Shown here: positions 25,491 to 28,579 of the stretch, piece after piece
Layout of the letters: every line of letters starts with the position of its first letter
Numbering within the stretch: position 1 is the stretch's first letter
Assembly (NCBI RefSeq): GCF_000027125.1
Contig: NC_017626.1
Length of the DNA stretch: 64,000 nt
Reading direction: 5' to 3' (one strand)
Source of the DNA: Escherichia coli 042
Lineage (GTDB): Bacteria; Pseudomonadota; Gammaproteobacteria; Enterobacterales; Enterobacteriaceae
Made by a program: the position numbers and the translations under genes
The notes under the pieces: generated by a model
Told to the model about the DNA's origin: nothing
Databases searched by the model: none
The model's input: the letters and a program-made list of their open reading frames with translations, nothing else

Positions 25491-25723
25491 TGAGATCCCG
25501 TTATTTTTATCAATTTTTGTTGCTATCCGATCGCAAAAAAGCCACGTCATATGATCAGATAATTCTGATAATGATAGACGCTATTTAACACTTCACACGG
25601 TTTGTATACGGAAAAGCATTTTGCTTTTTGTATTCAATTTAGACAGAATTTTATTAATCATTTCAGGGTAATGGGGTGATGAGATGTTGCGTAACAGGGC
25701 CAGAAGGCTAGACTACAAAATAA

Positions 25724-26728
<1,005 letters not shown>

Positions 26729-26823: not shown

Positions 26824-26945
26824 GCAGGTGAATGCAACGTCAAGCGATGGGCGTTGCGCTCCATATTGTCTTACTTCCTTTTTTGAATTACTGCATAGCA
26901 CAATTGATTCGTACGACGCCGACTTTGATGAGTCGGCTTTTTTTT
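26824..26945 (+). ncRNA. fnrS: FNR-activated small RNA FnrS
   Basis: Sequence GCAGGTGAATGCAACGTCAAGCGATGGGCG... ending in hairpin GCCGACTTTGATGAGTCGGC plus T-run; position between zntB and dbpA. Confidence 0.8.
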
Positions 26946-27002
26946 GCCTGTTATTTATCAGCGTCTACCCTTTAAGAGTCCACCCAATGACCGGAGGGAA
27001 AT

Positions 27003-27176
27003 ATGACGACACTTATTTATTTGCAAATTCCTGTCCCTGAACCGATTCCTGGCGATCCTGTTCCAGTGCCCGATCCGATCCCTCGCCCGCAACCCATGCC
27101 TGACCCACCACCCGACGAAGAACCGATTAAATTGTCGCATCGTGAGCGTAGATCTGCGAGGATACGCGCCTGCTAA
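27003..27176 (+). CDS. Small proline-rich protein, 57 aa (not in the 60-aa ORF track)
   Basis: ATG 27003 preceded by GGAGGG RBS; translation MTTLIYLQIPVPEPIPGDPVPVPDPIPRPQPMPDPPPDEEPIKLSHRERRSARIRAC. Confidence 0.4.
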   Translation: MTTLIYLQIPVPEPIPGDPVPVPDPIPRPQPMPDPPPDEEPIKLSHRERRSARIRAC

Positions 27177-27205
27177 CTTTGCGTCGATGACCACGAGAAT
27201 AGATT

Positions 27206-28579
27206 GTGACCGCTTTTTCTACCCTGAATGTTTTGCCTCCTGCCCAACTCACGAACCTTAATGAGTTGGGTTATTTAACCATGACGCCGGTGCAGGCCGC
27301 CGCGCTTCCGGCGATCCTTGCCGGAAAAGATGTTCGCGTGCAGGCGAAAACCGGCAGCGGCAAAACGGCGGCTTTTGGCCTCGGCTTGTTACAGCAAATT
27401 GATGCGTCGCTATTTCAAACCCAGGCTTTAGTGCTGTGTCCTACGCGTGAACTGGCGGATCAGGTGGCAGGTGAATTGCGTCGGCTGGCGCGTTTTCTAC
27501 CAAATACCAAAATTTTGACGTTGTGCGGTGGTCAACCGTTCGGTATGCAGCGTGATTCGTTGCAACATGCGCCGCATATTATCGTGGCAACGCCGGGCCG
27601 TTTGTTGGATCATCTGCAAAAAGGCACGGTATCACTGGATGCGTTGAATACGCTGGTGATGGATGAGGCCGACCGCATGCTGGATATGGGATTTAGCGAT
27701 GCCATTGATGATGTCATCCGTTTTGCGCCAGCATCTCGACAGACGCTTCTGTTTTCGGCAACCTGGCCGGAAGCCATCGCCGCAATCAGCGGACGAGTGC
27801 AACGCGATCCTTTAGCGATTGAAATTGACTCAACAGATGCTCTGCCACCTATTGAACAACAATTTTATGAGACATCCAGCAAAGGCAAAATTCCGTTGTT
27901 GCAACGGTTATTAAGTTTGCATCAGCCATCCTCTTGCGTGGTGTTTTGCAATACCAAAAAAGATTGCCAGGCTGTCTGCGACGCGCTGAATGAAGTAGGG
28001 CAAAGTGCATTGTCGTTACACGGCAATCTGGAGCAACGTGATCGCGATCAGACCCTGGTACGTTTTGCTAACGGTAGCGCCCGTGTACTGGTTGCGACTG
28101 ATGTTGCTGCGCGAGGTCTGGATATTAAATCGCTTGAGCTGGTGGTGAACTTTGAGCTGGCGTGGGATCCTGAAGTTCATGTACATCGCATCGGTCGTAC
28201 AGCGCGTGCAGGAAATAGCGGTCTGGCGATCAGTTTCTGTGCTCCGGAAGAAGCACAGCGGGCCAATATCATTTCTGACATGTTGCAGATAAAACTTAAC
28301 TGGCAAACGCCGCCAGTTAATAGTTCCATTGTGCCGCTGGAAGCCGAAATGGCAACGTTATGTATCGATGGCGGGAAAAAAGCCAAAATGCGCCCGGGTG
28401 ATGTATTAGGTGCGCTGACAGGAGATATCGGGCTTGATGGCGCAGATATTGGCAAAATCGCCGTGCATCCGGCGCATGTCTATGTCGCGGTGCGTCAGGC
28501 TGTTGCTCATAAAGCATGGAAACAGTTACAGGGCGGGAAGATTAAAGGAAAAACGTGCCGGGTGCGGTTATTAAAATAA
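27206..28579 (+). CDS. dbpA: ATP-dependent RNA helicase DbpA (DEAD-box, 23S rRNA specific)
   Basis: 457 aa, GTG start, motifs AKTGSGKT, DEAD, SAT, HRIGRTAR. Confidence 0.9.
   Translation: MTAFSTLNVLPPAQLTNLNELGYLTMTPVQAAALPAILAGKDVRVQAKTGSGKTAAFGLGLLQQIDASLFQTQALVLCPTRELADQVAGELRRLARFLPNTKILTLCGGQPFGMQRDSLQHAPHIIVATPGRLLDHLQKGTVSLDALNTLVMDEADRMLDMGFSDAIDDVIRFAPASRQTLLFSATWPEAIAAISGRVQRDPLAIEIDSTDALPPIEQQFYETSSKGKIPLLQRLLSLHQPSSCVVFCNTKKDCQAVCDALNEVGQSALSLHGNLEQRDRDQTLVRFANGSARVLVATDVAARGLDIKSLELVVNFELAWDPEVHVHRIGRTARAGNSGLAISFCAPEEAQRANIISDMLQIKLNWQTPPVNSSIVPLEAEMATLCIDGGKKAKMRPGDVLGALTGDIGLDGADIGKIAVHPAHVYVAVRQAVAHKAWKQLQGGKIKGKTCRVRLLK

Follow-up and report, generated by a model that had tools for sequence, protein, structure and literature searches.

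ynaL of Escherichia coli 042: a known gene for a proline-rich small protein whose peptide is under selection and whose 3' third is also constrained at the nucleotide level

Among the described systems closest to the locus considered here are the proline-codon leaders mgtP, in the mgtCBR leader of Salmonella, and mgtL of mgtA, which sense elongation factor P (EF-P) or prolyl-tRNA. These leaders are much shorter, their peptides are unconserved beyond the sensor codons, and they act via mutually exclusive RNA hairpins or Rho. The subject of this study is ynaL, a proline-rich open reading frame (ORF) of 57 codons plus a TAA stop at positions 27003–27176 (+ strand; stop at 27174–27176) of a 64,000-nucleotide (nt) stretch of Escherichia coli 042 DNA, hereafter the window, in which it lies between the small RNA gene fnrS and the RNA helicase gene dbpA. 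Like mgtP and mgtL (the latter mentioned in 10.1101/2024.04.15.589488), ynaL is a short ORF directly upstream of a larger gene with invariant consecutive proline codons; unlike them, it has a peptide of about 25 residues under purifying selection, and a conserved RNA switch was not found. The nascent-chain arrest peptides SecM, TnaC and MifM provide a second point of comparison, since they too are small upstream ORFs with a conserved C-terminal segment near the start of the next gene. The tail of ynaL differs from theirs in being conserved as nucleotides past stop codons, and a conserved stem-loop over the downstream start was not found.

The identity of the ORF was established by a match to the Pfam family PF23677 (YnaL) at 136.9 bits against a cut-off of 27 (E = 2.1e-40), with residues 1–57 aligned to profile positions 1–57. 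Its translation in the ORF list, MTTLIYLQIPVPEPIPGDPVPVPDPIPRPQPMPDPPPDEEPIKLSHRERRSARIRAC, is 100% identical to the YnaL sequence listed in PMC6001520. RefSeq carries the protein as WP_001296046.1, and a coding sequence named ynaL, described as 'proline-rich small protein YnaL', stands at the matching position in a record that is 100% identical over 701 nt. When a segment of this length centred on the locus was used as a query, 5392 of 5426 complete E. coli genomes matched at 95–100% identity, and the RefSeq annotation of ynaL extends to this number of genomes. Six of 5393 matches to the zntB-ynaL-dbpA segment fall on records labelled plasmid, and two copies occur in one genome.

The first-pass annotation, made from the letters of the window, had proposed here an unlisted 57-codon ATG ORF that could be a small protein or a translated regulatory leader for dbpA. 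It placed the ORF correctly between fnrS (26824–26941) and dbpA (27206–28579), and the 28-residue proline stretch that it quoted is accurate. The ribosome-binding site GGAGGG, which it put about 5 nt from the start codon, reads directly from the sequence at 26993–26998 and ends 4 nt before the ATG (5 nt if counted from GGAGG). The claim of 23 prolines among the 57 residues was too high, as we counted 16 (28%). The ORF is nevertheless the most proline-rich open 57-residue stretch of the window in all six frames: 16–17 prolines were found only in five overlapping 57-residue windows at ynaL, and at most 12 in every other open one. The word 'unlisted' was true of that reader's own ORF track only; RefSeq annotates ynaL, and the novelty that the word implied does not stand.

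The published record agrees with a translated gene. VanOrsdel et al. (2018) included YnaL, placed between fnrS and dbpA, among 36 small proteins detected by immunoblot, with the sequential peptide affinity (SPA) tag placed at the chromosomal 3' end, and YnaL was also positive in a tetracycline ribosome-profiling screen (PMC6001520). The same paper gives the coordinates of ynaL in K-12 MG1655 as 1409308–1409481. According to Neuhaus et al. (2017), the locus was formerly termed the non-coding RNA C0343, a 57-aa protein at C0343 was shown by Washietl et al. (2011) with RNAcode, the C0343 RNA family was removed from Rfam, and the locus has a ribosome coverage value (RCV, from RIBOseq) of 2.49 in enterohaemorrhagic E. 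coli (PMC5331693). The ORF is ynaL, formerly C0343, a known gene, and the finding as such is already known. The small-protein option of the first-pass annotation is thus borne out by the RefSeq gene, the Pfam family, the tagged protein and the ribosome coverage; it had named the lack of ribosome occupancy as a sign against the idea, and occupancy is on record from both the profiling screen and the RIBOseq data. Taken together with the comparative evidence below, we consider it highly probable that this is the known protein-coding ynaL of E. coli and close Enterobacteriaceae, that its peptide is under selection and that its 3' third is constrained at the nucleotide level as well.

Conservation of the protein was examined in two collections. 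A protein search for relatives returned 162 homologues, and all those with a named organism belong to the Enterobacteriaceae (Escherichia, Salmonella, Citrobacter, Enterobacter, Klebsiella, Raoultella, Leclercia, Lelliottia, Kosakonia and others). When 28 homologues found by protein search rather than by DNA pattern were aligned (A1), the N-terminal ~15 residues are variable, the sequence is near-fixed from about residue 18, and 20 columns are invariant, including PDPPPD. The DNA collection comprised 87 loci from a one-genome-per-species set, recovered with a degenerate pattern for PDPPPDxxPIK; 86 of them have the arrangement fnrS-ynaL-dbpA and one is a chance match. Seventy-eight species were aligned, and the nucleotide comparisons below refer to these unless stated otherwise. 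About 80 Enterobacteriaceae species keep the frame, the start and the position flanked by fnrS and dbpA. A GGAG or GAGG motif lies 4–9 nt before the ATG in nearly all related loci. The fnrS core sequence is carried by 81 of the 86 loci, 141–158 nt before the ynaL ATG in nearly all. Two loci depart from this distance, with 1242 nt in L047 (Intestinirhabdus alba) and 191 nt in L085, which suggests insertion.

Selection on the encoded peptide was measured over codons 18–32, the 15 codons just upstream of the search pattern and unconstrained by it. In the true frame the ratio of nonsynonymous to synonymous substitution rates (dN/dS) is 0.085 with dS of 1.41, close to the figures for codons 2–31 of dbpA (dN/dS 0.066, dS 1.07). 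Reading the same DNA in frame +1 or +2 gives dN/dS of 2.6 (dS 0.14) and 5.5 (dS 0.07), respectively. Frame 0 is the sole frame open through the core in all 78 aligned species, and a gene overlapping in another frame or strand was rejected, as none of the others is open along the whole ORF. Synonymous variation occurs at every degenerate codon of core codons 17–40, with entropies of 0.26–1.96 bits, mostly 0.7–1.9. Selection therefore acts on the peptide: a core of about 25 residues, DPVPxPDPIPRPQPMPDPPPDEEPIK, is kept while third positions drift freely across about 80 species. The frame is hence conserved, where its lack of conservation had been the other sign named in advance against a small protein. 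Translation of ynaL, together with purifying selection on its peptide, means that the product itself matters, beyond the mere act of translation.

Several loci depart from the usual form of the ORF. An in-frame deletion of 11 codons in the X-Pro repeat leaves a 46-aa YnaL in E. coli E69 (L044), and an in-frame duplication of 10 residues in the same repeat gives 70 aa in a Salmonella enterica protein (P0053); these length changes suggest slippage between short repeats. The loss of one base in a run of C shifts the frame of the core in Leclercia adecarboxylata NCTC13032 (L062), in what may be either a pseudogene or a homopolymer error of long reads, and the two nucleotide blocks described below are intact there. 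Two metagenome contigs of E. coli type (L092, L151) carry single variants, PHPPPD or PDPSPD, in the otherwise invariant motif, which may be rare polymorphisms or assembly errors. The usual stop is absent in Klebsiella oxytoca, K. michiganensis and K. grimontii (L022, L029, L049), where the frame runs for 84 codons and overlaps the start of dbpA in another frame.

The 3' third of ynaL shows a second type of conservation. Synonymous variation is absent in codons 42, 44–46 (I42, L44, S45, H46) and 50–55, so that Ile is always ATT and Ser always TCG, followed by AGA TCT GCG AGG ATA CGC. These sites fall in two segments defined by nucleotide-level conservation: Block 1, CCGATTAAATTGTCGCAT, at 27123–27140 (codons 41–46), and Block 2, AGATCTGCGAGGATACGCGCC, at 27150–27170 (codons 50–56), which includes the rare codons AGA, AGG and ATA. 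Synonymous entropy is zero in six of the seven codons of Block 2, and dS is 0.005 in this block, 0.078 in Block 1, 1.06 in the three-codon linker between them and 1.41 in the proline-rich core. Overall, 10 of the 14 codons in the 3' part have zero synonymous entropy, against none of the 23 core codons (Fisher p = 3e-6, uncorrected for phylogeny; the species being related, the test overstates independence).

Natural truncations separate the blocks from the peptide. In 15 of the 78 species an in-frame TAG, TAA or TGA stands in the linker at codon 47 or 48 (equivalent to 27141–27149), while Block 2 is unchanged downstream. The loci concerned (L005, L013, L016, L018, L020, L031, L032, L037, L039, L050, L063, L066, L069, L071 and L079) include the Enterobacter cloacae complex, Lelliottia, several Kosakonia-like taxa and Huaxiibacter, and their YnaL has 46–50 residues, ending in PIKLSHR or PIKLSR. 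The use of different stop codons at two positions indicates that the early stops arose more than once. The distance from the PPP codons to the dbpA start is 97–106 nt in all loci; the distance from the ynaL stop to that start is 14–30 nt in full-length forms (29 nt in the window, to the GTG at 27206) and 57–63 nt in early-stop forms.

Kluyvera provides a more complete separation. A metagenome scan for Block 2 returned 110 loci with a normal ORF, as well as two loci (L139, L153) in which fnrS, both blocks and dbpA are present and the proline-rich ORF is absent. L153 encodes a DbpA identical to the Kluyvera georgiana protein, and the same arrangement was found at the K. ascorbata, K. cryocrescens and K. 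intermedia loci, making four Kluyvera species in total (Kluyvera-type loci L139, L153, L209, L210 and L211). About 145 nt are missing, equivalent to ~26975–27117, which comprise the Shine-Dalgarno sequence, the ATG, the N-terminus and the core. Retained are Block 1, as GATTAnnnTGTCGCATC, a 9-nt spacer, Block 2 and an intact dbpA. A residual frame of 14 codons, (M/L)SHxxxRSARIRAC, is open there and has no Shine-Dalgarno sequence. Kluyvera is placed among ynaL-bearing genera in the enterobacterial phylogeny, and because of this nesting a secondary deletion is the simpler reading of the absent ORF.

The survival of the blocks through premature stops and through the deletion of the ORF in Kluyvera argues for a cis element in the region upstream of dbpA. 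On this comparison of sequences, the last third of ynaL (27123–27140 and 27150–27170) is constrained as nucleotides and not as peptide. The putative cis element of dbpA may be a promoter, an operator or a 5' UTR site, and ynaL happens to read through it at its 3' end. We found no earlier report in the searchable literature of the frozen 3' synonymous sites, or of a Kluyvera locus that has lost the ORF and kept the blocks. The embedded nucleotide element, together with its retention in loci with a truncated or deleted ORF, may be the only new part of this work.

Several candidate explanations for the blocks were tried. A repeated regulatory motif was ruled out, as the 59-nt 3' segment with the blocks has a single occurrence per E. 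coli genome. Pairing of the FnrS RNA with the blocks was rejected because the duplex energy equals that of shuffled targets. A consensus scanner found no sigma-70 promoter inside blocks 1 and 2, and an approximate position weight matrix (PWM) gave weak sites (median 3.2). Inspection by eye against the consensus sequences gave no convincing match to sigma-E, sigma-32, sigma-28 or sigma-54 sites in the blocks, and blocks 1 and 2 match no Rfam family. RNA structure was also discarded as a cause of the conservation. The region is less structured than shuffled sequence (z = +1.9), folding of the E. coli sequence does not surpass that of shuffled controls (z = +0.38), and RNAalifold over the aligned species yielded one invariant 6-bp helix of -3.7 kcal/mol with no covariation. 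An apparent U:A to C:G compensation between E. coli and Citrobacter in the linker and dbpA ribosome-binding region failed across species.

The composition of YnaL suggests an extended molecule. Residues 1–9 are uncharged, mildly hydrophobic and variable between species. The acidic X-Pro repeat core (codons 10–41, 27030–27125) contains 16 Pro, 7 Asp/Glu and 1 Arg, and 6 Lys/Arg make residues 42–57 basic. With the family alignment as input, AlphaFold2 returned no secondary structure, with a predicted TM-score (pTM) of 0.23 and a predicted local distance difference test (pLDDT) of ~90 for residues 21–40, a high value which in a proline repeat does not demonstrate structure. From this model and the composition we infer that YnaL would be a non-globular, extended polyproline-type chain or rod with a short basic tail in most species. 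A likeness exists with the polyproline spacer of TonB (PF16031), since each carries alternating X-Pro repeats with charged residues, for which an extended rigid rod is expected. The match is compositional only (PF16031 at 11 bits versus a cut-off of 33, E = 0.68; NCBIfam TonB at 20.8 bits against a cut-off of 315), and YnaL differs in that the transmembrane anchor and the TonB C-terminal domain are absent from it. A cationic proline-rich antimicrobial peptide with PRP motifs was dropped as a candidate because the core of YnaL is acidic.

The core also contains the DPPPD motif (codons 34–38, 27102–27116), which is invariant in the 28-protein alignment and is a predicted EF-P-dependent slow site. 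PPP stalls ribosomes in the absence of EF-P, and Asp at position -1 is among the strong contexts (PMC4176338). By these stalling rules, YnaL synthesis should depend on EF-P, and probably does so through DPPPD. As a working guess, YnaL would be a small binding or spacer peptide, an acidic proline rod acting in trans, possibly within the ribosome/RNA context of DbpA. It is probably made from the same transcript as dbpA.

A candidate promoter for such a transcript was located with low confidence at 26944–26971 (+ strand), immediately downstream of the terminator of fnrS. This sigma-70-like sequence, the best conserved of the promoter-like sites in the interval, reads TTGCCT, 16 nt, TACCCT and scores a median of 7.8 and a minimum of 3.8 in the approximate PWM scan. 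This segment, GCGTCTACCCTTTAAG, is nearly invariant, as is its CTACCCT element in the conservation profile. The candidate -35 would overlap the T tail of the fnrS intrinsic terminator (26918–26946, + strand), for which the terminator scan gave an 8-bp stem with 5 GC pairs, a GC hairpin followed by the T run TTTTTTTT. In Kluyvera only 9 nt separate TTGCC from the TACCCT element, so the candidate spacing is not kept there. The published Cappable-seq supplement tables have no entry for the ynaL locus. If real, the candidate promoter would give a ynaL-dbpA bicistron in E. coli.

Several points weigh against the interpretation given so far, the limits stated for the Fisher test and the pLDDT values among them. 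The absence of the proline-rich protein from Kluyvera and of the basic tail from the 15 early-stop species indicates that some lineages can do without the protein and that the tail is not essential. A function, partner or phenotype of YnaL was not found in the searchable literature; a 2014 paper containing 'ynal' concerns ynaI, the gene of a mechanosensitive channel. The dependence on EF-P is predicted from the motif, the shared transcript with dbpA and the promoter position are likewise predictions, and a stricter promoter scan found no promoter here.

An alternative is that ynaL serves dbpA chiefly as a translated leader acting in cis, the second option of the first-pass annotation. Ribosomes would then slow at DPPPD when EF-P, prolyl-tRNA or peptidyl-transfer capacity is low, and this slowing would alter the arrival of ribosomes or RNA polymerase at dbpA via translational coupling, via Rho (by exposure of the C-rich, G-poor RNA of the proline codons) or via uncovered blocks 1 and 2, tuning a helicase that helps to build the 50S peptidyl-transferase region. 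The geometry of the locus agrees with this scheme: wherever dbpA could be located, ynaL directly precedes it on the same strand, the distance from PPP to the dbpA start is fixed and that from stop to start is short, and nucleotide-conserved blocks lie between PPP and dbpA. The ribosome-binding region of dbpA (27195–27208, + strand, from the conservation profile) pairs an invariant but weak GAGA Shine-Dalgarno sequence with a GTG start at 27206, the would-be sensor codons are an invariant PPP flanked by Asp, a strong EF-P-dependent context (PMC4176338), and the lack of structure in the region is what a Rho loading site would show. In contrast, conserved alternative hairpins were not found, the 6 invariant base pairs without covariation and the unremarkable E. 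coli fold being all that the structure analysis gave, and the terminator scan detected none between ynaL and dbpA. A leader needs only its sensor codons, yet ~25 residues are held at the low dN/dS reported above. The stop position shifts by ~30 nt among species, the protein accumulates to detectable levels (PMC6001520), and in Kluyvera both dbpA and the blocks are present in the absence of the ORF, comparative evidence that the ORF is not obligatory. On balance, we regard a role mainly as a leader as unlikely.

Both conserved layers could in principle be coupled. DbpA is a helicase that remodels the region of 23S rRNA that forms the peptidyl-transferase centre. In a two-layer locus, the DPPPD peptide would test peptidyl-transfer or EF-P capacity, and the progress of ribosomes over blocks 1 and 2 (27123–27170) would set DbpA expression; if true, this would amount to feedback from translation chemistry to ribosome assembly via DbpA. 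We consider such a scheme improbable. The coupling is speculation, while the separately conserved cis element in the 3' third and the invariant PPP are observations.

A nascent-chain arrest peptide of the SecM/TnaC type, in which the C-terminal RSARIRAC would stall the ribosome near the stop and open the dbpA start, is very improbable. Its appeal lies in a C-terminus that is nearly invariant, contains the rare codons AGA, AGG and ATA and ends 14–30 nt before dbpA in most species. However, zero synonymous change marks this conservation as one of nucleotides rather than amino acids, upstream stops remove the tail in the 15 early-stop species, 2–10 extra residues follow it in Klebsiella, Raoultella and some Citrobacter, and no conserved hairpin sequesters the dbpA start.

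Least credible of all is a non-coding small RNA with an incidental ORF, which has the historical listing of C0343 and the nucleotide-level conservation of part of the region in its favour but is already refuted for the core by codon-periodic substitution (dN/dS 0.085) and by protein detection and reported ribosome footprints (PMC6001520, PMC5331693), the RNA moreover being less structured than shuffled sequence and without an Rfam 15 match at E up to 1.

The upstream gene fnrS (26824–26941, + strand) matches Rfam RF01796 over its full length at 134.8 bits against a gathering score of 60, and is the only RNA family matched here in Rfam 15 at E up to 1. Downstream, dbpA (27206–28579, + strand) encodes an ATP-dependent RNA helicase according to the ORF list and the RefSeq annotation. 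Farther upstream, at 25684–25731 (+ strand), RefSeq places a 15-codon gene for the protein YnaN under the gene label ydaN, 13 nt upstream of zntB.

For the biology of ynaL in the Enterobacteriaceae, the points on the 3' element may be of use in the study of DbpA or of small proteins. A control element of dbpA may be disturbed when the 3' end of ynaL is mutated or tagged, also by the published C-terminal SPA tag, and the loss of the ORF in Kluyvera together with the natural truncations defines the minimal conserved peptide.

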